In this document: positions 38,279-49,234 of the stretch, in pieces
How positions within the stretch are numbered: position 1 is the first letter of the stretch
How the letters are laid out: every line of letters begins with the position of its first letter
Assembly (NCBI GenBank): GCA_963766735.1
Contig: CAVYBU010000003.1
Coordinates: 192,001 to 256,000, forward strand
DNA length: 64,000 bases
Direction: 5' to 3'
Source of the DNA: an uncultured Chloroflexia bacterium
GTDB lineage: Bacteria; Chloroflexota; Limnocylindria; Limnocylindrales; CSP1-4
Translations under genes and position numbers: made by a program
The notes under the pieces: model-generated
Database searches by the model: none
Told to the model about the DNA's origin: nothing
Seen by the model: the letters and a program-made list of their open reading frames with translations, nothing else

Positions 38279-39037
38279 TCAGCTTCCCGTTGCACGACCG
38301 CCCGCCGCGCGGCGCCGCACCCACCGAACCGGCGCCGTCACGGTGCCGATCGCCGTGGATACGACGATGCTGCCCCGGACGTTGCGCGCGTAGCGCCACT
38401 GGCGCCGCTTGTCCACGCAGACCTTGGCCGTCACGACGTTGGGGTCCGCGACACCCACGGAGCGGGCGAGGTTGTCGAGGGTCTGCTCCCAGAACCTGTC
38501 GTTCTGCCGGTTCGCGCCAAGCACGTAGCTCAGCTCGACGAACGGGTCGCTTGCCCGCTCGAGGGCCTGCACCTGGGCGACCGTGATGTCGCCGTCCCGG
38601 TGCGAGGAGAACGTGATCCAGGCCGAGAGCATGTGACCTTCAGGGGTCATGAAGGTGAACGATTCGGCGTCCGCGTAGATGACCATCACGCCCGTCGACA
38701 TCGTCAGTGGCGCGCCGGGCATCGCCTGGACCTCGAGCAGCGCGACCTCGCCGGGGCTGATGCCCGACAGCGGGGCGTAGAACTTGGCGCCCTTGGGCCA
38801 GAAGGTCGGGAAGTTGGCCTTCCAGTGGGCGACGAGCTCATGCGGCGTCAGCTCGCAGCCCTCGAGGCGGACGGAGAAGGTCTTCTGCCACATCTGGCCG
38901 AAGCCCTGGACGGGCCCGGTGACGCGCTTGCCGGTGACCCGGTCGCTGCCGGCGCCGCTCGCGGTCGTGCTCAACTTGTCGACGGGACGGGCCCACGACT
39001 CCTGGTCGCGGGGGGTGCGGGGCTCGGGTGTGGTCAT
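38279..39037 (-). CDS. Hypothetical protein downstream of the STAS pair
   Basis: GGAGG RBS; globular, aromatic-rich sequence (GPVQGFGQMWQKTF, SFTFMTPEGH); no function recognised. Confidence 0.75.
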   Translation of the reverse strand: MTTPEPRTPRDQESWARPVDKLSTTASGAGSDRVTGKRVTGPVQGFGQMWQKTFSVRLEGCELTPHELVAHWKANFPTFWPKGAKFYAPLSGISPGEVALLEVQAMPGAPLTMSTGVMVIYADAESFTFMTPEGHMLSAWITFSSHRDGDITVAQVQALERASDPFVELSYVLGANRQNDRFWEQTLDNLARSVGVADPNVVTAKVCVDKRRQWRYARNVRGSIVVSTAIGTVTAPVRWVRRRAAGGRATGS

Positions 39038-39126: not shown

Positions 39127-39468
39127 TCAGGCGGATGCGGCAGCGAGCGCCGCGGTCTCGTCGTCGTGGATCGCGATCGCCTCGTCGAGGCGGGTGAGCT
39201 CAAGGATCTGCTTGTAGTGGTCGGACAACCCCACGGCGAGGAGCTTCTGGTTCGCGCGCTGGGTCCGGACGAGCAGGGTGACCAGGAGACCGATCCCACC
39301 CGAGTTCATGTAGTCAAGCTGGCTGAAGTCCAGGACGATCGATCGGGCGTCGCCGGCTTCGGCATAGGCGGCCATGATCGGCGGCTCGCTGCCCCCGGTG
39401 ATCTCGCCATGGATCCGCAGGATCGCGGTCGATCCATCACGGGTCACGTCAACGGTGGTGTCGGTCAT
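39127..39468 (-). CDS. STAS-domain anti-sigma-factor antagonist
   Basis: IVLDFSQLDYMNSGGIGLLV..LELTRLD with the phosphorylatable Ser. Confidence 0.92.
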   Translation of the reverse strand: MTDTTVDVTRDGSTAILRIHGEITGGSEPPIMAAYAEAGDARSIVLDFSQLDYMNSGGIGLLVTLLVRTQRANQKLLAVGLSDHYKQILELTRLDEAIAIHDDETAALAAASA

Positions 39469-39827
39469 CGGGCTGCCTCCTCGGGGACGGGCGTCGCCGG
39501 CTGGCCGTCGGCGATCGTGAGGTAGTCGGACAGGCGCGTGATCCGGAAGATCTCGCGGTAGTGGTCAGAGAGGCCTTCGGCGATCACCTCGCGATGGTCG
39601 CGACGCGCCTCGGCCAGGAGCCGGACGATCAGGGCGATGCCCGTCGAATTGATGTAGTCGACCTGCGTGAAGTCGAGGACGACACGGGTCGCGCCAGCCT
39701 CGGCAGCCTCGGCATAGGCTGCGGCGAGGGCATCGTCTGCGGCGATGTCCACGTCCCCCCGCATCGCCAGGCGGGCCTCGCCGGGGATCGTTGTGACGAC
39801 CTCCACGGCCAGTCGGTTGTCGTTCAT
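39465..39827 (-). CDS. STAS-domain anti-sigma-factor antagonist
   Basis: VVLDFTQVDYINSTGIALIV..IFRITRL. Confidence 0.92.
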   Translation of the reverse strand: MNDNRLAVEVVTTIPGEARLAMRGDVDIAADDALAAAYAEAAEAGATRVVLDFTQVDYINSTGIALIVRLLAEARRDHREVIAEGLSDHYREIFRITRLSDYLTIADGQPATPVPEEAAR

Positions 39828-39850: not shown

Positions 39851-41512
39851 TCAGCGCCCGTCGCGGGCGATGGTGAGGGTCACGGTCTGCAGGCCGTCCG
39901 CGGCGTGCACGTCCATCCCGTCCACCATGTGGCGGATCAGGAACAGGCCCCAGCCGCGCGGCTTCTGGCGGCCCTCGAGCTTGGCGTCGAGGTCCGGCAT
40001 CTCGGCCTCCGGGACCGGCCCGGACAGCGCCCGATCCGTGACGCGGATGTGGATGGCCTCGTCGTCGGCGTCAACGCGGACATCGACCGGGACCGCGGGA
40101 TCGCCCTGGGAGCCGTACTCGATCGCGTTCATCACGGCTTCCGCGACCGCCGTCTTGAGACGCTCCAGGCGCGCGGGTTCGAGGCCCAGCGGCGCCACTG
40201 CCTCGGCGACGCGCTGCATGGCCGCGCGCTCGTTCCCGATGGCGCCCTCGATGGTGAAGGCGATGAGCGGCTCGGCGTCGGCGATGCCTCCGGCGGCCGT
40301 CACGACCGGCTTCCGGTCGCGGGTCACAGGCACCTCGGGACGCTCCTCGGCCCATGCGTCCGCGGTTCCGTGCGAGCGGCGCAACGTGACGAGCGTGATG
40401 TCGTCCTCCTGCTCCATGCCGGGCCCGGTGAAGGCACGCAGCTCGTCGAGCAGTCGGTCCAGGAGAACGCTCCCGGCGTCGTCGGTGACCATCGCCTCGC
40501 GCAGGCGGGGGAAGCCGTACATCTCCCGGCCGGGTCCGTGCTGCTCCACCAGGCCGTCCGAATAGAGCAGCATGGCGTCGCCCTGGCCCACGAAGCCCTC
40601 GGTCTCCTCGTAGACGATGCCCGGCATCAGGCCGAGCGGCAGGCCGGTCGCCCGCAGCTCGATGACGCCGTCCGTCGTGCGCACGTAGGGCAGGTTGTGG
40701 CCGGCGTTCGCGAACACGAAGCGGCCGGTCTCGGGCTCCAGGACGCCGTAGAGGCAGGTGACGAACATCCGCGCCGGCATCTCGGGGGCGAGCAGCTCGT
40801 TCGCCCGGGCAAGGACCTTGCCGGGCTCGATGAGCCGCGGGGCCTCCGCCCGGAGGATCGAGTGGGTGCGGGCCATGACGAGGGCCGCCGGGACGCCCTT
40901 GTCGGTGACGTCGCCGACGACGACACCGATGCGGCCCTCGCCAAGGTCGATGAAATCGTAGAAGTCTCCGCCGACGACGCGTGCCGGTCCGTAGTACGCG
41001 GCGATCTGCCATTCGGGGAGGTTCGGGAGCTCGCGCGGGAGGAACTGCTGCTGGATCAGCTGGGCGACCTTGAGCTCCTGCTCGTACCGCTCGCGCTCGG
41101 CCGCTTCCGCGGCCTGCTCGCGGACGAGCTGCGCGACGCGGATCGCGGGCGCGGCCTGCGCCGCCAGGGTCGCGAGCAGCCGGCGGTCGTCAGTCGAGTA
41201 GTCCTGCTCGGAGAGGCGTGGCCCGAGGTTGAGCGTCCCGATGAGTTCGCCCTGGGTCACCAACGGCACGACGAGCGCGACGCCCGCTCCCCGCAGCTCC
41301 TCGAGAGCGGGCGAGGCGAGCTCCAGGCGGGTGAGGTCAACGGGTCCCGGTGCCGACTGGAGGTACGCGAACAGCGGGTCGGTCTCGGGGATGTCCACGG
41401 CGACGCCGGGCCGCTCAGCCGTCGGCACGGCGGGCGCGGGCATGACGACGGCCGCCGACTCGGGCTTGGGCCGGCCCATCAGGCGACGGAACGGGCGAGA
41501 GATCGCTGTCAT
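39851..41512 (-). CDS. Partial GAF + SpoIIE/PP2C phosphatase + RsbW-like HATPase fusion
   Basis: VVPLVTQGELIGTLNLGPR..LATLAAQAAPAI (GAF C-part); VGGDFYD, GDVTDKG, YSDGLVE, EDDIT (PP2C); AVAEAVMNAIEYG, GWGLFLI (kinase). ATG 41512 preferred from promoter geometry; 41545 is the alternative. Confidence 0.9.
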   Translation of the reverse strand: MTAISRPFRRLMGRPKPESAAVVMPAPAVPTAERPGVAVDIPETDPLFAYLQSAPGPVDLTRLELASPALEELRGAGVALVVPLVTQGELIGTLNLGPRLSEQDYSTDDRRLLATLAAQAAPAIRVAQLVREQAAEAAERERYEQELKVAQLIQQQFLPRELPNLPEWQIAAYYGPARVVGGDFYDFIDLGEGRIGVVVGDVTDKGVPAALVMARTHSILRAEAPRLIEPGKVLARANELLAPEMPARMFVTCLYGVLEPETGRFVFANAGHNLPYVRTTDGVIELRATGLPLGLMPGIVYEETEGFVGQGDAMLLYSDGLVEQHGPGREMYGFPRLREAMVTDDAGSVLLDRLLDELRAFTGPGMEQEDDITLVTLRRSHGTADAWAEERPEVPVTRDRKPVVTAAGGIADAEPLIAFTIEGAIGNERAAMQRVAEAVAPLGLEPARLERLKTAVAEAVMNAIEYGSQGDPAVPVDVRVDADDEAIHIRVTDRALSGPVPEAEMPDLDAKLEGRQKPRGWGLFLIRHMVDGMDVHAADGLQTVTLTIARDGR

Positions 41513-41519
41513 GGGCGCC

Positions 41520-41552
41520 ATCCTCAAGGTTGTGTGTTCGGACATCGTTACG
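41520..41552 (-). promoter_or_regulatory. SARP-type direct-repeat promoter (copy 1)
   Basis: CGTAACG-atgt-CCGAACA-N9-GAGGAT-N7-ATG. Confidence 0.65.
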
Positions 41553-42738
41553 AAGGCTGGGCAGAGCTGTCACTGCTTGCGTTACGAAGCCATATGCCGG
41601 CGGCAGCCGGTTTGACCGCAGCGCTGGTCGTCGCGACGAGGGCGTCATGCACGGAATTGACGTCGATCTCGTTCCGAAGCCGCTCAGCGAAGGCGTCCGC
41701 CGTTCGCTGCCCGTCGTACCGCGCCCGGTCGAACCGGCGGTCCACGACGCGCTGGACCCGCCGCCGCAGCGGCTGGAACAGCGCGAACGCGACGAGGGTG
41801 GACGCCGCCACCGCGAGCGTGTTCTCGTTCGTGACCGGTGCGAGCACCGTCTGCAGCGCGACGACGAGGCCCGCGAACACCGCCACCAGGATCCCCGTCA
41901 CGATCGCCCAGCCGATCGTGCGGCTGACGATCCGGTCGATCTCATACAGGCGGTACCGGGTGATGGCGATCGCGATCGCGATCGGGATCAGTGGGTAGGC
42001 GATGACGGCCGGCCACCACATCCAGGTGCCCGTCGTGTCGACCAGCAGGATCACCGCGAAGGCGAAGACCACCGTGCCCAGGGTGACGGCGAGGGCCGCC
42101 AGGAGCCACTTGTACTGCTCGCGTTCCGCCCCTTCGGCTCGCCGGAACCGGACGATGAGGGTCCCGATGGCTGCGGCGAGGGCGATGAGCACCGCCACGA
42201 ACACGCCCGTCTGGATGACCGGCCATCCGGGCCAGTCGGGCGCGATGCCGAACGGCAGTCGGACGGCGACCGCGATCCCATCGGTGAAGTTGACGGTGGC
42301 ATCCGGCGCGAAGGCCAGGACGATGGCGAAGACGATCGGGACCGCGACGGCGAGCCGGCCGACGGTACCCAATCGGCCCGCCGGGAACCGCCCGGCTGGG
42401 AACAGGACGGCCAGCGCGACAAACACCCCGAACGCCAGGCCGCTGCCCCACGAGTTGGTCCACGCCATGAGCGTGATCCCCGCGTCGGCATGACCATCGA
42501 CGACCTGGGACGAGGGGCCCGGCACAACGGTGCCGAGCGTCTCGAAGGCCAGGGCGAACGCGACGAGCAGCCAGCCGACGACCTCTCGCGGCCGGCGCCA
42601 GGCCAGGAACAGGCCGACCGCGCAGTACGACCCGATGATCCAGGCGCCCGAGATGTCCTGCCCGGACCACACGGCGATGCCGACGACCAGCATCACCACG
42701 CCGGCATATGGCACGGCGCGCAGGTGCTCCAGCCTCAT
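41548..42738 (-). CDS. Multi-pass membrane sensor-like protein, paralog 1
   Basis: About 10 TM segments; LFPAGR, REQYKW, RYRLYEIDR, FQPLRRRVQ..DRRFDRARYD, ends ..AGIWLR plus 11 aa. Confidence 0.85.
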   Translation of the reverse strand: MRLEHLRAVPYAGVVMLVVGIAVWSGQDISGAWIIGSYCAVGLFLAWRRPREVVGWLLVAFALAFETLGTVVPGPSSQVVDGHADAGITLMAWTNSWGSGLAFGVFVALAVLFPAGRFPAGRLGTVGRLAVAVPIVFAIVLAFAPDATVNFTDGIAVAVRLPFGIAPDWPGWPVIQTGVFVAVLIALAAAIGTLIVRFRRAEGAEREQYKWLLAALAVTLGTVVFAFAVILLVDTTGTWMWWPAVIAYPLIPIAIAIAITRYRLYEIDRIVSRTIGWAIVTGILVAVFAGLVVALQTVLAPVTNENTLAVAASTLVAFALFQPLRRRVQRVVDRRFDRARYDGQRTADAFAERLRNEIDVNSVHDALVATTSAAVKPAAAGIWLRNASSDSSAQPS

Positions 42739-43925
42739 CCCCCCGCCTCCGTCCGCACCCAGACCGCGACCGAGCCCGGCCGGAGGGCCTCGTGCACGGT
42801 GACCGCGATGTCGGTCTCCACTCCGGCGAGGTCGACCCGGTCGCGCAACCGCTCGCCGAATGCGGTCACCACCCGCTCCCCGTCGTACCGGGCCCGGTCG
42901 AACCGGCGATCCACGGCCCGCTGGACCCGCCGGCGCAGCGGCTGGAACAGGGCGAACGCGACGAGCGTGGACGCCGCGACCGCGAGGGTGTCGTTGTCCG
43001 TCACGGGCGCAAGGATCGCCTGGAGGCCAACGATCATCGCCGCAAAGAGGCCCGCCAGCAGCGCGGTGACGATGAGCCAGCCCAGCGTCCGGCTGATGAC
43101 CCGGTCGATCTCGTACAGGCGGTAGCGGGTGATGGCGACGTAGATCGCGGCCGGGATCATCGGGTAGGCGAAGATCGCGGGGAGCCAGGCGAGGCCGCCG
43201 ATCCCCTCCCCGAACACGATGATCGAGCTGAGCCCGGCGATCACCGCGAAGACCATGAACGCGAGCGCGGCGACGAGCCATCGAAGCTGGAGCCGCTCGA
43301 CGCCGGTCGCACGGCGGTACCTGATGAGCATCGAGATCACGCCGATCATCAGCAGGACGACGACCGGCGCAATGAGCGAATCGAGCGGGATCACCGACCA
43401 GATCGCAAGGTCCGGCAGGATGGCGAACCGATTGGGGACCACCACCGTCTCATTGCCGGCTAGGTTGAAGCCGACGACTGGCGCAGCGGCGGCGACGATG
43501 GGGATCATGGCGCACACCCCCAGCATGGCGATCGCAGGTCGTCGCCAGGGTCCTCTCGGCAACCGGCCGGACGGGAACAGGAGCATCAGGGCCACGAATC
43601 CGCCGAAGGTCGCGTAGCCGCTCCACGAGGAGGCCCACGCCGCGAGGAACTGATCCAGGGGTGCGGTTCCGTCCTGCAACGCCGTCGCATCGAGTTGGAG
43701 CTCCGTCGTGGTGCCGATGAACCCGAACGCGATCGCGACGAGGAGCCAGCCAATGCTGTTGCCAGGTCGTCGGATGACCAGGACGGCCCCGATGGCGGCA
43801 TAGCTCGTGTAGAAGAACAGGGTGAACGGATCCAGGCGGGCGAGGAACAGCCCGAACACGAGCAGTGTCAGGAGCAGGATGCGGCCCACGACTCCGAGCG
43901 GGCGCGGCGCCGTGGTCGTCGTCAT
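42735..43925 (-). CDS. Multi-pass membrane sensor-like protein, paralog 2
   Basis: RRPGNSIGWLL, LFPSGRL, RLQLRW, RYRLYEIDR, ends VAVWVRTEAGG; ATGA overlaps at both ends. Confidence 0.85.
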   Translation of the reverse strand: MTTTTAPRPLGVVGRILLLTLLVFGLFLARLDPFTLFFYTSYAAIGAVLVIRRPGNSIGWLLVAIAFGFIGTTTELQLDATALQDGTAPLDQFLAAWASSWSGYATFGGFVALMLLFPSGRLPRGPWRRPAIAMLGVCAMIPIVAAAAPVVGFNLAGNETVVVPNRFAILPDLAIWSVIPLDSLIAPVVVLLMIGVISMLIRYRRATGVERLQLRWLVAALAFMVFAVIAGLSSIIVFGEGIGGLAWLPAIFAYPMIPAAIYVAITRYRLYEIDRVISRTLGWLIVTALLAGLFAAMIVGLQAILAPVTDNDTLAVAASTLVAFALFQPLRRRVQRAVDRRFDRARYDGERVVTAFGERLRDRVDLAGVETDIAVTVHEALRPGSVAVWVRTEAGG

Positions 43926-45124
43926 CGAGCCTTTCTGAGCCACACGGACGCGGCTGCCGGCGCCACGGCATCGTCGACGGTTTGCACGATCGCTGAGCGC
44001 AGCCGGTCCAGGTCCACCTGGTCCCGCAGCTCCCCTGCGAACGATGCCACGACGCGTTCGCCGTTGACCCGGGTCCGATTGAACCGCCGGTCGATCGGCG
44101 CCTGCACGCGACGCCGGAGCGGCTGGAACAGGCCCGCGACAACGAGCGTTGCAGCCGCGGTGACCAGGGTCGAGCTGCCGGCGACATCCGCGAGGACCGC
44201 CTGGAGCGCGAGGTTCGTCGCGACGAAGGCGATCGCGAGGAGTGCCGTGAGGAGCGCGTACGTGATCGTTCGCCCGACGATGCGGTCGATCTCGTACAGG
44301 CGGTAGCGAAGGACCGCGATCGCGATCGAGACGGGCACGAGGCCCAGCGCGATCGTGGTGACGATGAACGCGGCAACGCTCAGCGGATCGGGCAGCACCG
44401 TGGCCCCGAGAATACCCAGGAGAGCAAGCCCGGCCGTGGCGCCGAACCACTTCAGCTGCTGGCGCTCGATCGGCGTCCCCCGCCGATAGCGGATGAACGG
44501 CGCCGCGAGGATGACCGGGAGGCAGACGATGAGCACCAGGCTCCCGACCTCGGACATCGCCGCCGCCAGGTCCGTCAGGCCACCCAGGGCGGCGAAGCCG
44601 GGTGGCAGCGGGACTCCCGGCGCCACATCGACCGAGGTGGGCAGGATGATGGCGGTGACGATCTGGGAGAGCAACGCGGCCGCGATCAGCAGCGCGACGA
44701 TGCGCCAGCGAGAGGACGGCAGGTGGCCGTCCGGGAAGCACAGCGGCAGGCCGGCCAGCGCGAAGGCGAGCGCCGGAGTGAACAGGAGGCTGCCCCACCA
44801 CCCTGCGTACGGCAACGGCAGTGACCCGCCGTAGACCTCGGCGTTGAGAAACCCCCACATCTGGCCGATCAGCGCCACGCCGAACCAGACGCCCGTCCCC
44901 CATACGACCCAGCCGACGAGATGCCCCGGACGGCGGGTCGCGATCACGCTTCCGACGAGTGACCACGACATCACGACGAACGTGTAGACGGGTATCGCCC
45001 AGCCGTCCGACTCCTGTGGAGGGAGCACGGCGACGAGGACGCCCAGGGTGATGGGCACGCCGAGCCCCAGCAGCCACACGAAGCCGGCGACTGGGCGGGC
45101 GAGGCTTCGCTGTTGGACCATCAC
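43922..45124 (-). CDS. Multi-pass membrane sensor-like protein, paralog 3
   Basis: RRPGHLVGW, FPDGHLPSSRWR, ERQQLKWF, RYRLYEIDR, ends ASVWLRKAR. Confidence 0.85.
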   Translation of the reverse strand: MMVQQRSLARPVAGFVWLLGLGVPITLGVLVAVLPPQESDGWAIPVYTFVVMSWSLVGSVIATRRPGHLVGWVVWGTGVWFGVALIGQMWGFLNAEVYGGSLPLPYAGWWGSLLFTPALAFALAGLPLCFPDGHLPSSRWRIVALLIAAALLSQIVTAIILPTSVDVAPGVPLPPGFAALGGLTDLAAAMSEVGSLVLIVCLPVILAAPFIRYRRGTPIERQQLKWFGATAGLALLGILGATVLPDPLSVAAFIVTTIALGLVPVSIAIAVLRYRLYEIDRIVGRTITYALLTALLAIAFVATNLALQAVLADVAGSSTLVTAAATLVVAGLFQPLRRRVQAPIDRRFNRTRVNGERVVASFAGELRDQVDLDRLRSAIVQTVDDAVAPAAASVWLRKAR

Positions 45125-46326
45125 GGTTGCTCGGCCCCTCCCACCGCGATCGGACGCTCAGACCGGAGCCAGATCGTGGCACCCGCTGGCCGAACCGCCT
45201 CCACGACCACCTCCACGACCGCGGTACGAAGACGTCCGAGGTCGACCTCATCCCGAGCCTGACGCGCGAACACGCCAACCAGCTGCTCGGCATTGTGGTG
45301 CGCCCGGTTGAAGCGGCGGTCGATGGGCGCCTGAACCCGGCGCCGGATCGGCTGGAACAGCGTTGCGACGATCAGCGTGGAGACTGCGACCGCAATGGGT
45401 GGCAGCTCTCCCGCGCCGGCGACCAGTGCCTGCAGCAGGAGGTTCGTGCCGACGAAGACCGCGGCCAGGAGCGCCGTCACGATCGCGTACGACAGCGTCC
45501 GGCCGATGATCCGGTCGATGTCGTACAGGCGGTACCGCAGGATCGCGATGCCGATGGCGATCGGCAGCAGGGCGAGGGACAGTTGCCAGGCGCTCCACAG
45601 CCACGCCGGCCCGATGAACAGGCCCGGGAAGAGCACGACCGGCAAGGCGCCTGCGGCAGCAACCCACCGGATCTGGGCGCGGACGACGGGCCCGGCCCGC
45701 CGATAGCGGCGCGCAAGCACAACCGCGGTCACGGCCAGCCCGGCAACGTACAGGAGCAGGGCTGCGTTGGCGATCGACTCCGCGGTCCCGCGGCCAAGCG
45801 CGCTCATGCCGAGCGGGTTGCTCGTCCGTTCGATCCAGCCGGCCTGCACCTGGCCCGGTGCGAAGGTGGCAATTGCCGTGCAGGTGAGCGCAACGATGAA
45901 CATGCCGTTGGCGATCGCGGACAGTCGGTCCCGCTCGAGCCCGGCCGGGAACCGGACGAGGAGGAGGCCCGCGGACATCAGGACCGCGCCCCAGAGCTGC
46001 GACGAGACGACTGCGGCGGCGGCGCCGACCGGCGGGATCGGGCCCGGCGCCCCGTCGAGGGCGACGGCCAGGATCTTGAGCCCGGTTGTGGTGATCGCGA
46101 TGATCCCGATGAGGAGCGCCATCCTCCCGACGGGCTCCCGGGGGCGACGGGTGACGAGGATCGCGCCGACGGTGGTGAACCCGAACCCGAACCCGAACAC
46201 GACGACGACCTCCTCCCACGTGGTTGCCGCACGGGGATCGGTCAGCGCCGCCCACGACGCGACGATGGTCACGAGCAGCGCGAGCAGCCAGGTGACGGAG
46301 ACGAGCCGGACGCGGGTCGAGGTCAT
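45121..46326 (-). CDS. Multi-pass membrane sensor-like protein, paralog 4
   Basis: RRPREPVG, RAQIRWV, RYRLYDIDR, ends ATIWLR plus 12 aa. Confidence 0.85.
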   Translation of the reverse strand: MTSTRVRLVSVTWLLALLVTIVASWAALTDPRAATTWEEVVVVFGFGFGFTTVGAILVTRRPREPVGRMALLIGIIAITTTGLKILAVALDGAPGPIPPVGAAAAVVSSQLWGAVLMSAGLLLVRFPAGLERDRLSAIANGMFIVALTCTAIATFAPGQVQAGWIERTSNPLGMSALGRGTAESIANAALLLYVAGLAVTAVVLARRYRRAGPVVRAQIRWVAAAGALPVVLFPGLFIGPAWLWSAWQLSLALLPIAIGIAILRYRLYDIDRIIGRTLSYAIVTALLAAVFVGTNLLLQALVAGAGELPPIAVAVSTLIVATLFQPIRRRVQAPIDRRFNRAHHNAEQLVGVFARQARDEVDLGRLRTAVVEVVVEAVRPAGATIWLRSERPIAVGGAEQP

Positions 46327-46399: not shown

Positions 46400-49234
46400 A
46401 TGCCGCTCGATATTCGCGTTCTCGGTCCCCTCGAGGTCCAGGTGGACGGCGAGCCGATCCGCGTCGACACCCGCAAGGCCGTCGCGATCCTCGCGCTCCT
46501 GGCGGTGGAGCGGCGGCCGTACGCGCGTGATGAGCTCGCGGCGATCTTCTGGCCGGAGTCCGACGATGGATCCGCCCGGGGCGCGCTGCGCCGGACGCTG
46601 TCGGTGCTCAGGGCGGCGCTCGGCGATCGCTGGCTGCACGTCGACCGCTCGACGGTCTCCCTCGCGGCCCACGGCGCAGGGGTCTGGCTGGACCTCGCTG
46701 CGCTCGAAGCGGGCGCCGCCGGTGGCGACCAGGGTGCGCTCGCGGAGGCTGCGGCCCTGGCCCGAGGCCCCTTCCTCGCCGGGTTCTCGCTCCGCGACAG
46801 CCCGGACTTCGACGACTGGCGTGCCACCCGTGCCGTCACCGTCGAGCGGCGCGTCGTCGAGGTGCTGGAGGGCCTCGTCACGGCGGCGGAGGCTGGTGGC
46901 GACCCAATGGCCGCGATCGCGGCCGCGGCGCGGCTCGTGGAGCTGGATCCGCTCGACGAGCCCGCACGCCAGCGGCTGATGGCGGCGCTTGCCCGCGGCG
47001 GCGACCGGGCCGGAGCGATCCGCGAGTACCGCACCACCGTGGCCATGCTGGAGCGGGAGCTGGGCGTGGTGCCATTGGCGACGACCACGGAGCTGTACGA
47101 GGCGATCCGGGATGGGCGGCTCGCGCCGGTCGTGCACGTGCCACCGGCGCATGTGATGAGCGGTGCACCGGCGGCAACCGTCGTCGAGCCGAGGACCAGG
47201 CTGCCGATGCTGGGCCGGCGGCTGGAGTTGGAGTCGCTCCTCGATGCGTACCGTCGATCGTCGGCGGACGGGCGCGTCGCCAGCGTCACCGGCGAGGCTG
47301 GGATCGGGAAGTCCCGCCTCGTTGAGGCGCTGCTCGCACGGGCGGCGGCCGATGGCGCCACGGTGCTCCTGGCCCGCGCCTTCCCGGCCGAGGGGTCCAT
47401 CGCCTATGCGCCGATCGTGGAGCTGCTCCGGGCGGGGTTCGCGGTGCCCGGAGCCGCCCAGCGCCTCGCAGAGCTCGCGCCAGCCACCCTGGCGGAGGTC
47501 GAGCGTCTCGTGCCGCTGCCCGACGGCGTGGCGACGGACAGCGCGGCACCGGGCGCGGCCGAGTCGCCCGCTGCGCGCGCGAGGCTGCTCGAGGCGATCG
47601 CGGCGGCGCTCGCGGCGATCGGCCATGGCGCCACGCCGGGCATCGTTGCCGTGGACGATCTGCAGTGGGCGGATGACGCATCGCGGGAGGCGCTCCTCTA
47701 CATCGCCCGGAGGCTGACCGGTCGGCCGATGCTCCTCCTCCTCACATGGCGCCCCGGGGACCTGGAGGAGGGAACCCAGCTGTTCGCGGAGGCCATCCAC
47801 GGGCTCCCGGGCGCGACGTCGGTGCGGCTGGAGCGGCTGGACGACGTGGTGGTCGGGGCGCTTGTCGATGCGGCTGCCGCGGCCGGTCTGCCGGCCTGGG
47901 ACGCGGCGGCACTCGCCTCGGAGTCCGAGGGGCTGCCGCTGTACGTGGTCGAGGCCCTGATGGCCGGTCCCGGCGCAGCCGGCCAGGCGCCGCCGCGTGG
48001 CGTCCGCGCGCTGCTGCGAGAGCGCCTCGCGAGCGTCTCGGAGACGGCGAGCCAGGTGCTCGCGACGGCCGCGGTGATCGGTCGCTCATTCGATTTCCCG
48101 ACGGTCCGGGTGGCCAGCGGCCGCTCTGACGACGAGACCGTCACGGCCCTCGAGGAGCTCGTCCACCGGGGGATCGTCCGCGAGCTTGCGAGCGGGCGGG
48201 AGACTGCCTTCGACTTCGGGCACGCCCGGCTCCGGGACGCGGCGTACGAGGAGATCGGGCTGGCGCGCCGGCGGCTTCTTCACCGGCGGATCGCGGAGGT
48301 GCTGCGGGCCGACCCGGCCGGGCGCCACGACCCGGGACGGCTGGCGCAGATCGCTGGCCACGAACAGGCCGCCGGACGGGACGCCGCCGCCGCCGAGGCC
48401 TACCGCGAGGCGGGGCTCGGGTCGCGGCGGATCTACGCCCATCGCGAGGCACTCGAGCTTCTCGAGACGGCCCTGGCCCTCGGGCACCCGGACGTCGTGG
48501 GACTCCAGGTCGCGATCGGCGAGATCCGCACGGCCCAGGGGGACTACGCGGCGGCGATCGCCTCGCTCGAGGCCGCGGCGGCGATCGGCGACGAGGCCGC
48601 CCTGTCGGGCGTCGAGCTGCGCCTGGGGCAGGTCCACGCCCGGCGCGGTGATGTGGCCACGGCCGCGAGCCATCTCGACGCGGCGCTGGCCGGGGCAGAC
48701 GAGCGACTCCGGCCAGGGGTGCTGGTCGAGCGCGGCGCCGTGGCGATGCGAGCCGGCGACCTGGACCTGGCGACCTCGCTTGCGGACCAGGCACTGGCCG
48801 CCGTGGCGGGCACCACCGATGACAGGACGACCGGGGCCGCCCGCCGGCTGCTGGGCCTGGTCGCCCTGCGGCGTGGCGATCTTGATGCGGCGCGCGCCTC
48901 GCTCCGGACGGCCGTCGACGCGGCTGGGCCCGGGCTGCACGGCGACCCGGCGGCCGCGATCGCCGCGCGGAACGGCCTGGCACTCGTCGAGGCGGCGGCA
49001 GGTGACCACGCCGCAGCGATCGTCCTTCTCCAAGAGGCGTTGGCCGAATGCCGGCGGACCGGCGAGACGCATCTCGAGGCTGCGGTCGAGAACAACCTCG
49101 CCGACCAGCTCCGCGCCGCCGGTCGCAGCGACGAGGCCATGGCCCATCTCAAGCGTGCCGTGGCGCTGTTCGCGGAGGTCGGCGGGCGCCCGGGCGAGCT
49201 GGAGCCGGAGATCTGGAAGCTGGTCTCCTGGTAG
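46400..49234 (+). CDS. SARP/AfsR-like regulator: winged HTH + BTAD + AAA (STAND) ATPase + TPR
   Basis: IRVLGPLEV, ELDPLDEPARQRLM (BTAD), GEAGIGKSRL, VDDLQWAD, FDFGHARLRDAAY, TPR tail; leaderless TACCGT-N7-ATG. Confidence 0.9.
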   Translation: MPLDIRVLGPLEVQVDGEPIRVDTRKAVAILALLAVERRPYARDELAAIFWPESDDGSARGALRRTLSVLRAALGDRWLHVDRSTVSLAAHGAGVWLDLAALEAGAAGGDQGALAEAAALARGPFLAGFSLRDSPDFDDWRATRAVTVERRVVEVLEGLVTAAEAGGDPMAAIAAAARLVELDPLDEPARQRLMAALARGGDRAGAIREYRTTVAMLERELGVVPLATTTELYEAIRDGRLAPVVHVPPAHVMSGAPAATVVEPRTRLPMLGRRLELESLLDAYRRSSADGRVASVTGEAGIGKSRLVEALLARAAADGATVLLARAFPAEGSIAYAPIVELLRAGFAVPGAAQRLAELAPATLAEVERLVPLPDGVATDSAAPGAAESPAARARLLEAIAAALAAIGHGATPGIVAVDDLQWADDASREALLYIARRLTGRPMLLLLTWRPGDLEEGTQLFAEAIHGLPGATSVRLERLDDVVVGALVDAAAAAGLPAWDAAALASESEGLPLYVVEALMAGPGAAGQAPPRGVRALLRERLASVSETASQVLATAAVIGRSFDFPTVRVASGRSDDETVTALEELVHRGIVRELASGRETAFDFGHARLRDAAYEEIGLARRRLLHRRIAEVLRADPAGRHDPGRLAQIAGHEQAAGRDAAAAEAYREAGLGSRRIYAHREALELLETALALGHPDVVGLQVAIGEIRTAQGDYAAAIASLEAAAAIGDEAALSGVELRLGQVHARRGDVATAASHLDAALAGADERLRPGVLVERGAVAMRAGDLDLATSLADQALAAVAGTTDDRTTGAARRLLGLVALRRGDLDAARASLRTAVDAAGPGLHGDPAAAIAARNGLALVEAAAGDHAAAIVLLQEALAECRRTGETHLEAAVENNLADQLRAAGRSDEAMAHLKRAVALFAEVGGRPGELEPEIWKLVSW

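Follow-up and report, generated by a model that had tools for sequence, protein, structure and literature searches.

How could one phosphatase answer to several membrane receptors when neither it nor any of them encodes a complete sensor domain? This question is raised by an operon of an uncultured Chloroflexia bacterium, which lies in a 64,000-nucleotide stretch of contig CAVYBU010000003.1 (positions 192,001 to 256,000 of the forward strand; genome G+C 70%), here called the window. A single minus-strand operon spans the region and encodes, in the order of transcription, the membrane paralogs P0001, P0002, P0003 and P0004 (hereafter the receptors), a phosphatase-kinase (P0005) and two STAS proteins. 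The GAF fold is a five- to six-stranded antiparallel sheet with N- and C-terminal helices flanking it. That the ends of the receptors and the beginning of P0005 are consecutive, non-overlapping parts of one GAF domain is well supported by the comparison of sequences. We consider it probable that the operon is a partner-switching system whose GAF input domain is distributed over separate genes, the receptor tail completing the half-GAF in trans.

The receptor tail and the beginning of the phosphatase

A preliminary description of this DNA had pointed to four coupled paralogs of about 400 amino acids, with divergent N-termini, conserved C-terminal parts and a common end, and this picture stands. 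The open reading frames (ORFs) run from 46326 to 41551, and the junctions of the four receptor genes are GTGA, ATGA and ATGA overlaps, so the genes are translationally coupled. The motifs RYRLY[ED]IDR, FQP[LI]RRRVQ, DRRF and W[LV]R are present in all four proteins. Pairwise identity among them is 25% over residues 1-250, 61% over residues 251-336 (RYRLY to DRRF) and 41% in the tail (residues 337-388), and the paralogs match one another at E-values of 1e-41 to 1e-90, a similarity far beyond chance. All four stop shortly after W[LV]R, at a distance of 3-13 residues rather than the 3-12 first given.

Neither Pfam nor NCBIfam has a model for the receptor family. The receptors have no Pfam family at E ≤ 1, and P0004 lacks a GAF match even at E ≤ 10. 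Pfam gave no match to HisKA_7TM (PF16927) either; the feature search of the Atlas lists HisKA_7TM at 0.84, which is a lead only. The 30 nearest Atlas clusters of the receptor have no Pfam family in common, and the three shown are named 'hypothetical protein'. The family is very large: at E ≤ 1e-3 P0004 matches 20,717 cluster representatives, of which 3,503 remain at E ≤ 1e-30. Among the 150 best matches of P0004, 122 end 50-69 residues past their last DRRF-type motif, like the window copies, and in 79 loci from named metagenome-assembled genomes (MAGs) the stop lies no more than 15 residues from the end of the match in 231 of 246 receptor ORFs. Given that so large a family keeps the same stop, the stop point argues for selection and not decay, as the preliminary description had supposed. 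The tail residues P377, W383 and R385 are nearly invariant.

That the locus reflects decay or an assembly artefact, with a broken sensor gene or frameshifts in the MAGs, is extremely improbable, and we rejected such a reading on the size of the family and its conserved stop point. Sequencing errors do occur in such genomes, as is seen from the frameshift-like database proteins P0007, P0013, P0019, P0021 and P0022, which to judge from their sequences are probable read-throughs of neighbouring receptor and phosphatase genes. Against an artefact here, all four receptor genes are open and have start codons besides being coupled, and residues 30-200 of P0005 are 86-100% identical over 120 clusters among the matches listed.

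Where the two pieces lie in a complete sensor can be read from proteins in which they are fused. We built a hidden Markov model (HMM) of 39 natural fused transmembrane (TM)-GAF-PP2C proteins from a fused-only alignment (A4). On this profile the four receptors end at positions 442-447 (P0004 covering 102-447) and P0005 begins at 478 with its residue 54, at E-values of about 1e-45 for the receptors and 4.6e-165 for P0005. In a second HMM of 88 fused TM-GAF-kinase/phosphatase proteins, from which P0021-P0024 were left out, the receptors align to positions 1-125 of 129, with the 'vwlr' strand as their last element. The same arrangement is found on the TIGR02916 (PrsK) profile, where P0004 lies at 128-349 and P0005 at 411-467; at 24.7 and 19.9 bits, far below the 300-bit equivalog cut-off, these matches indicate resemblance and not membership, and no HisKA domain is present. 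Pfam reads the fused proteins accordingly: in 7 of 7 tested, PF01590 spans its whole profile (from 1, 2 or 8 to 130-133) and starts at the helix homologous to the receptor tail (for example at residues 417-561 of P0081, 419-564 of P0398 and 446-591 of P0408).

Additional evidence on the nature of the tail comes from seven proteins with two membrane modules (P0020, P0025, P0026, P0030, P0040, P0080 and P0088). Their internal module breaks off directly behind LFQPLR...; the last module alone contains helix 1 and strand 1, and it is followed by the GAF domain and a histidine kinase or, in P0025, an AAA-type ATPase. Since the internal modules lack helix 1 and strand 1, the tail belongs with the GAF domain and not with the membrane module. 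The seven proteins are also, in their own right, a cis version of several sensors feeding one output.

On the phosphatase side, the earliest ATG of the P0005 ORF (41545) lies 2 nucleotides past the P0004 stop and would give a protein of 564 amino acids. The start is likely M12 at 41512, given that GAGGA lies 8 nucleotides upstream, that the protein record (P0276) has 553 amino acids and that orthologs start there; this leaves a gap of 35 nucleotides between the two genes. In the 553-residue protein the sequence VDIPETDPL begins at residue 40. It had been placed after a short linker, and the sequence is indeed there; what precedes it is longer, namely a 14-residue basic motif and a variable low-complexity stretch. 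Pfam finds the later portion of a GAF domain in P0005: PF01590 at residues 42-135 (profile 57-133 of 133), GAF_3 at residues 54-135 (52-127 of 129) and GAF_2 at profile positions 91-135 of 136 only. A whole GAF profile (PF01590, PF13185 or PF13492) was found in a single polypeptide neither for P0005 nor for the receptors.

Two results were set aside. In the 88-protein HMM, residues 8-50 of P0005 match profile positions 78-125, that is helix 1 and strand 1; we rejected this as homology because the stretch is of low complexity, varies in length among orthologs and is modelled as disordered, and because the match to the closer profile starts at residue 54. When fused proteins, receptors and phosphatases were aligned jointly with MAFFT, the phosphatases were placed on the membrane region, and this alignment was replaced by the fused-only one with HMM mapping. 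The division of one GAF domain across genes, as proposed in the preliminary description, thus bore out in every sequence test (fused profiles, Pfam and the PrsK mapping), and in alignment to the fused proteins and GAF HMMs the pieces complement each other without overlap. The receptors' share had been overestimated: the mapping gives them one helix and strand 1, not helices 1 and 2 and strand 1.

Natural fusions and co-occurrence across genomes

In four genomes (G362, G376, G390 and G246) the tail and the half-GAF-PP2C occur in one ORF, five ORFs in all. Their order is last membrane helices, FEPLR...ERRF, helix 1, strand 1 (ITVWMCK, GALWLRT, LALWIHT or VSFWVRA), linker and half-GAF-PP2C. The linker of about 14-60 residues, mostly of low complexity, stands in place of the strand-2 hairpin. 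HATPase_c_2 follows in three of the five ORFs, and a STAS gene lies downstream of the fusion in the G362 locus. Pfam recognizes a whole GAF domain in four of these proteins (profile 1-8 to 130-133). A GAF domain made of helix 1, strand 1 and the later elements, joined by a floppy linker, therefore already exists in cis.

Apparent fusions in databases are less reliable. Many 'proteins' of 700-1,400 amino acids in the receptor family resemble MAG frameshift read-throughs, and the long database proteins P0006-P0019, P0021 and P0022 were rejected as natural fusions, having unrelated sequence in place of WLR.

The split form recurs together with its partner. The window's own genome contains the four receptor copies and one P0005, and a genome search gave no further copies. 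Among 24 other genomes of the genus, 14 have receptors, in arrays of up to 11-12 matches, and 13 have a P0005 ortholog (79-91% identity), all 13 being among those 14; in the 12 loci fetched, the ortholog adjoins the receptor array. The 16 sister-family genomes, each of about 1 Mb, have neither gene. By their labels, the 79 loci from named MAGs come mainly from Limnocylindria/Chloroflexota and from Actinomycetota (Thermoleophilia, Rubrobacteraceae, Acidimicrobiia and Nocardioidaceae among them); a few carry the labels Acidobacteriota, Gemmatimonadota, Dormibacterota or Patescibacteria. A half-GAF-PP2C gene is present in 41 of the 79, or in 30 of the 43 with full 10-kilobase (kb) flanks, and is followed by STAS genes in the loci listed. 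The 13 orphan loci come from 12 genomes, and all 12 have the ortholog elsewhere.

In a class-wide sample of 201 genomes (at least 80% completeness; ortholog at E ≤ 1e-100, receptor hits at E ≤ 1e-20), the ortholog occurs in 42 genomes, all of them among the 79 with receptors, and in 0 of the 122 without receptor hits; these counts include G147 (both genes) and G114 and G179 (weak receptor hit only), which are flagged unpublished. Among the 37 genomes with receptors only, 29 have weak hits (1e-21 to 1e-31). In a phylum-wide sample of 301 genomes (at least 85% completeness), 17 of the 18 genomes with P0004-type receptors also have the ortholog; seen from the other side, 20 genomes have the ortholog, 17 of them with short receptors and three (G362, G376 and G390) with the fused form. 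The co-occurrence of truncated receptors and half-GAF outputs expected by the preliminary description is thus strong (all 42 ortholog-bearing genomes of the class sample, and 17 of the 20 in the phylum sample, have short receptors).

Three sets of observations stand apart. The receptor matches G151:C89:6011-6973 and G189:C51:3456-4400, in small-genome relatives of about 1.9 Mb, reach only to query residue 337-339, which is at DRRF and short of the tail, and may be a tail-less variant; the phosphatase ortholog was not found in these genomes. In several Actinomycetota (genomes G045, G046, G050 and G051 and loci L071, L074, L091 and L102) the PP2C and HATPase_c_2 parts lie in separate adjacent reading frames, which are either real genes or frameshifts; in the four loci the region order is phosphatase, STAS, STAS, receptors. 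Finally, P0442, P0457, P0461 and P0462 carry WD40 families according to their match listing.

Predicted structures and possible contact between the pieces

The AlphaFold2 model of P0005 alone (mean predicted local distance difference test, pLDDT, 84.5) places helices at 46-53 and 68-75, strands at 80-86 and 89-96 and a helix at 107-157, with pLDDT below 50 for residues 1-34. Two long strands and one of two residues are present, and no N-terminal helix 1, which falls short of a GAF fold. In the model of the fused protein P0081 (mean pLDDT 77.5), a continuous helix (365-412) leads from the last membrane span to GAF helix 1 (418-433), strand 1 (437-443, GVSLWTR) and strand 2 (455-464), followed by a short strand (478-481), helices, strands at 518-524 and 527-534 and a long helix (545-595) into the PP2C domain, that is five strands and helix 1 in all. 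Because the P0005 model has equivalents of the later P0081 elements only, its N-terminus is not a complete GAF domain. Similarly, the solved GAF structures of CodY, DevS and a methyl-accepting chemotaxis protein align with P0005 only from about their chain residue 68-105 onward. A phosphatase N-terminus that folds as a whole GAF by itself had been named as an outcome that would speak against a split; the two long strands and the Pfam match to 57-133 do not give one.

A complex was predicted for P0005 residues 1-150 (alignment A2) and P0004 residues 316-396 (alignment A1). Its score was 0.47 (runs 0.47, 0.46 and 0.50), compared with 0.00 for the best of three controls, which is graded as 'weak support'; at least 85% of the contacts are common to the runs, and the partner pLDDT is at least 59. 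Among 80 solved complexes 58 reach the mark, and among 110 mismatched pairs 2 do, counts that hold only roughly here because we used self-made alignments. Only 7 of the 80 solved complexes passed with a score of 0.60 or less, as did both of the mismatches that passed. Two halves of a familiar fold can also pass because they resemble GAF structures already solved. We therefore take the prediction as weak support, a small addition and not proof of docking: tail and phosphatase score above the controls, and the pairing of the W[LV]R strand, for which the preliminary description proposed to look, is not visible.

Completion in trans is nevertheless the mechanism that we consider most likely, with a probability somewhat above even. 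The end of each receptor consists of the juxtamembrane helix followed by the first helix and the first strand of the GAF domain (...D[LV]..L......V.P....W[LV]R), and P0005 brings a basic motif, a disordered linker and the remaining strands and helices of the same GAF domain. Docking of the tail on the half-GAF would complete the fold and tether the enzyme at the membrane. The state of the receptor's transmembrane region could then pass through the C-terminal GAF helix and a coiled-coil linker to the PP2C domain (in the P0005 model helix 107-157 runs unbroken toward PP2C, which starts near residue 168), and the balance of phosphatase and kinase would set the phosphorylation state of the two STAS proteins. 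Tandem duplication of receptor genes would supply alternative inputs to a single output. The comparisons themselves show the domain content, the complementary mapping, the conserved stop point, and adjacency, co-occurrence and fusion in other genomes; from them we infer that the pieces dock physically and that the receptors are interchangeable, as well as the ligands and the direction in which regulation runs.

Several observations weigh against this reading, and some of them come from the genomes. Receptors were found and the partner was not detected in one genome of the genus (G011, 86% complete), in one of the phylum sample (G509, 91% complete) and in eight of the class sample with receptors at E ≤ 1e-40; all ten are incomplete assemblies. 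A second subfamily of short receptors, about 450-485 amino acids long (RYRLWDID type, alignment A5), occurs as many as nine to an array and likewise terminates just behind strand 1 (position about 441-456 of the fused profile). No half-GAF-PP2C was found near it in 79 of 80 metagenome loci, where contigs are mostly short and ten are 13-21 kb. In whole genomes with this subfamily, one ortholog is present in four of five, in some 2-4 kb from the receptors and in others far away. Given that partners are rarely near and yet present in most of these genomes, adjacency is not general, while co-occurrence mostly holds. Moreover, since related genomes do not count as independent cases, the co-occurrence counts make the support look stronger than it is and should be read as a pattern and not as a statistic.

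These genomic exceptions bear on the possibility that there is no direct contact at all, the receptors being co-regulated but independent membrane proteins and the phosphatase having a self-sufficient reduced GAF-like domain or another form of control. Such independence would suit the genomes with receptors only, the weakness of the predicted complex and the frequency of orphan receptors (13 of the 43 loci with full flanks, and almost every locus of the second subfamily). We nonetheless think it quite unlikely. The ortholog never occurs without receptors or the fused form in our samples (0 of 122 in the class, and all three apparent exceptions in the phylum are fusions), the order of receptor array, phosphatase, STAS and STAS recurs in MAGs labelled as Limnocylindria/Chloroflexota and as several Actinomycetota lineages, and the two pieces map complementarily onto the fused proteins.

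The remaining points against completion in trans concern the pieces themselves. About 30 profile positions (448-477), corresponding to strand 2 of P0081 (residues 455-464), are in neither piece, so that any reconstituted domain would be a reduced GAF. The half-GAF is modelled with a pLDDT of 92-94 when alone; to judge from this model, it might fold stably by itself as a mini-domain or associate with another copy. The complex score lies in a range where predictions fail more often than they hold, except where the pairing was already likely, and neither a contact map nor an interface came with it. Among the paralogs, the membrane segment is better conserved than the tail that follows it. Finally, P0459 has the membrane module with its helix 1/strand 1 tail and then one more membrane helix and a WD40 propeller; the rest of a GAF domain is absent.

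An alternative that draws on several of these points is that receptors and phosphatase cooperate without completing a GAF domain: the basic MTAISRPFRRLMGR peptide at the N-terminus of P0005 would, for example, attach to the receptor or to the membrane, or else the tails would dimerise, and the homology of the tail to GAF would be a relic. The conservation of this peptide (Table 1) means that it must have a role. It is the protein's best match to a matrix of the receptors' LFQPLRRRVQR in 37 of 42 orthologs, and variants are found in other lineages (MTFIQSLRRTVG, MVQLMRRRR and MAYFFTTLKRRFR). Cooperation of this kind would also accommodate a half-GAF that models confidently alone, a tail that occurs in TM-tail-TM-WD40 proteins and a strand 2 that is absent from both pieces. 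We regard it as rather unlikely, considering that fused relatives have the tail in cis before the same half-GAF and Pfam reads the two as one GAF, and that the near-invariant P377, W383 and R385 lie in the stretch aligned to strand 1 of the P0081 model. The matrix scores are, moreover, negative and the 42 orthologs mutually related, which makes the likeness of the motif a lead only. Its resemblance to the juxtamembrane LFQPLRRRVQR suggests that P0005 descends from a fused sensor that lost the membrane part, helix 1 and strand 1. The motif may then be a relic of the lost membrane anchor, or a second contact site with receptor or membrane.

Completion in trans can be extended to a more specific plug-and-socket arrangement, in which one enzyme with an unfinished GAF domain would be completed by any of 3-12 competing or alternating receptors, its basic peptide pairing with the juxtamembrane helix so that the dimer of a fused sensor is mimicked. 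This we put forward tentatively, as a possibility that falls somewhat short of an even chance.

The output of the operon and its place among known systems

P0005 is a predicted PPM/PP2C phosphatase of the SpoIIE/RsbU family: it matches PF07228 at E 2.3e-48 (165.1 bits, cut-off 25; profile 2-191 of 192), and GGDFYD, GDVTDKG, SDG and EDD are invariant or nearly so across 42 orthologs. Its C-terminal domain belongs to HATPase_c_2 (PF13581, E 2.9e-22, 79.5 bits, cut-off 27.4); since the NCBIfam equivalog scores for spIIAB and RsbW are below their cut-offs, we do not regard it as an ortholog of either. Both STAS proteins carry a D-Y-x-N-S-x-G stretch, which presumably sits where SpoIIAA and RsbV have their phosphorylated serine, and both STAS genes are conserved beside the phosphatase in related loci. 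The partner-switching gene set of PP2C phosphatase, serine kinase and STAS antagonist is thus encoded together, and it recurs in the partner-holding loci listed. The operon encodes no sigma factor or other kinase/STAS target, and no genome-wide search was aimed at one.

The features are collected in Table 1. Two neighbouring genes may be added. Directly downstream of STAS protein 2, a 252-residue protein (38282-39037, minus strand) has no Pfam family at E ≤ 0.001 and could be part of the operon's output. Divergent from the receptor operon, a regulator of 944 amino acids with BTAD, AAA_16 and TPR domains (SARP/AfsR-like) is encoded at 46400-49234 on the plus strand.

Table 1. Features of the receptor-phosphatase operon, in positions of the window; P0005 domain residues follow the 564-residue numbering.
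Feature	Position	Strand	Evidence
Receptor paralog 1, P0001, 401 amino acids, multi-pass membrane protein	45124..46326	-	ORF, paralog matches
P0001 tail after DRRF (GAF helix 1 and strand 1), end IWLR + 13 residues	about 45124-45309	-	
Receptor paralog 2, P0002, 400 amino acids, GTG start, GTGA overlap with P0001 stop	43925..45124	-	
P0002 tail, end VWLR + 3 residues	about 43925-44080	-	
Receptor paralog 3, P0003, 396 amino acids, ATGA overlap with P0002	42738..43925	-	
P0003 tail, end VWVR + 5 residues	about 42738-42899	-	
Receptor paralog 4, P0004, 396 amino acids, ATGA overlap with P0003, TAA stop 41548-41550	41548..42738	-	
P0004 tail, residues 337-396, end IWLR + 11 residues	41551-41730	-	
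P0005, half-GAF / PP2C / HATPase_c_2, 553 amino acids from M12	39851..41512	-	Pfam, orthologs
P0005 conserved basic N-terminal motif MTAISRPFRRLMGR	41471..41512	-	R9, R10 and R14 at least 90% conserved
P0005 variable low-complexity linker, after the basic motif	down to about 41396	-	
P0005 C-terminal GAF part, residues 54-146	41108..41386	-	Pfam, fused profile
P0005 predicted PPM/PP2C phosphatase domain (SpoIIE family), residues 203-390	40376..40939	-	PF07228
P0005 RsbW/SpoIIAB-like kinase domain (HATPase_c_2), residues 440-558	39872..40228	-	PF13581
STAS protein 1, 120 amino acids, presumed substrate of P0005 phosphatase/kinase	39465..39827	-	PF13466 4.5e-13, PF01740 6.1e-12
STAS protein 2, 113 amino acids, start overlaps STAS 1 stop (ATGA)	39127..39468	-	PF01740 1.4e-13

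Fused TM-GAF-PP2C ('RsbU-like') sensors share with this system the membrane module (RYRLYDID, FQPLRRR and DRRF), the GAF and the PP2C domain. They comprise the P0081 family of about 790-886 amino acids, from Actinomycetota-labelled MAGs, and the fused orthologs described above. Whereas those sensors are one polypeptide, the system described here is cut after GAF strand 1 and has its receptor half in arrays; the P0081 family also has the strand-2 hairpin that the split system lacks. PrsK, the XrtA/PEP-CTERM histidine kinase, resembles it in having a multi-pass membrane region, a GAF domain and an output, but the output here is PP2C/HATPase_c_2 and not a histidine kinase.

Comparable partner-switching systems have been described in other bacteria. 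RsbT of Bacillus subtilis is reported to bind the N-terminal region/linker of RsbU, and a coiled-coil linker and dimerisation of the phosphatase lead to dephosphorylation of the STAS protein; the same linker mechanism is proposed there for GAF, PAS and receiver domains of PPM phosphatases (PMC12143880). As in this general stress response, the operon in the window has a separate input protein, a PPM phosphatase and a STAS output. RsbT is soluble, kinase-like and released from the stressosome, and it binds a complete four-helix domain, whereas the input proposed here is a membrane protein that would donate part of a fold. Rv1364c of Mycobacterium tuberculosis is presented in the same source as an N-terminal PAS domain, a PPM phosphatase, an anti-sigma-type kinase and a STAS domain (PMC12143880). 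P0005 likewise combines sensor, PPM phosphatase and anti-sigma-type kinase domains in one chain; unlike in Rv1364c, as described there, the sensor domain is an incomplete GAF instead of a PAS domain, and STAS is encoded by separate genes rather than in the same chain.

Divided folds are also known from other proteins. The split NpuDnaE intein is given as a naturally split protein (PMC8707292) and split membrane proteins are said to arise by gene fission (PMC3464245). In both, as in our system, two gene products each hold part of a fold, which they are known or believed to restore. Those proteins form one-to-one pairs, whereas here a single C-terminal fragment would serve many N-terminal ones, and it is their assembly that would link receptor to output. 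In the open full-text literature, with subscription journals and supplementary files outside its scope, we found no description of a split GAF domain or of this architecture; PMC8707292 was considered as one and rejected, as it concerns split inteins. The parts are ordinary (membrane sensor module, GAF, PP2C, RsbW-like kinase and STAS), and the fused architecture is common. What is new is the cut inside a domain, the N-terminal fragment in arrays and the ratio of many receptors to one output.

GAF-like sensor domains are normally treated as indivisible, and many-to-one integration is normally ascribed to separate complete proteins. Here, an intra-domain cut is conserved in thousands of protein clusters, from genomes and MAGs labelled as Chloroflexota, Actinomycetota and, in a few cases, other soil and freshwater phyla. 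Given that fused and split versions are both natural, the case is directly testable. If the pieces assemble, they would provide a natural example of domain completion coupling a membrane receptor to a phosphatase, as well as a simple design for input swapping in engineered signalling. Assembly would also give a role to a very large family of 'hypothetical' membrane proteins of about 400 amino acids that has no Pfam model. Should a single unfinished enzyme indeed accept any of its several receptors, new inputs could evolve simply through duplication of a receptor gene.

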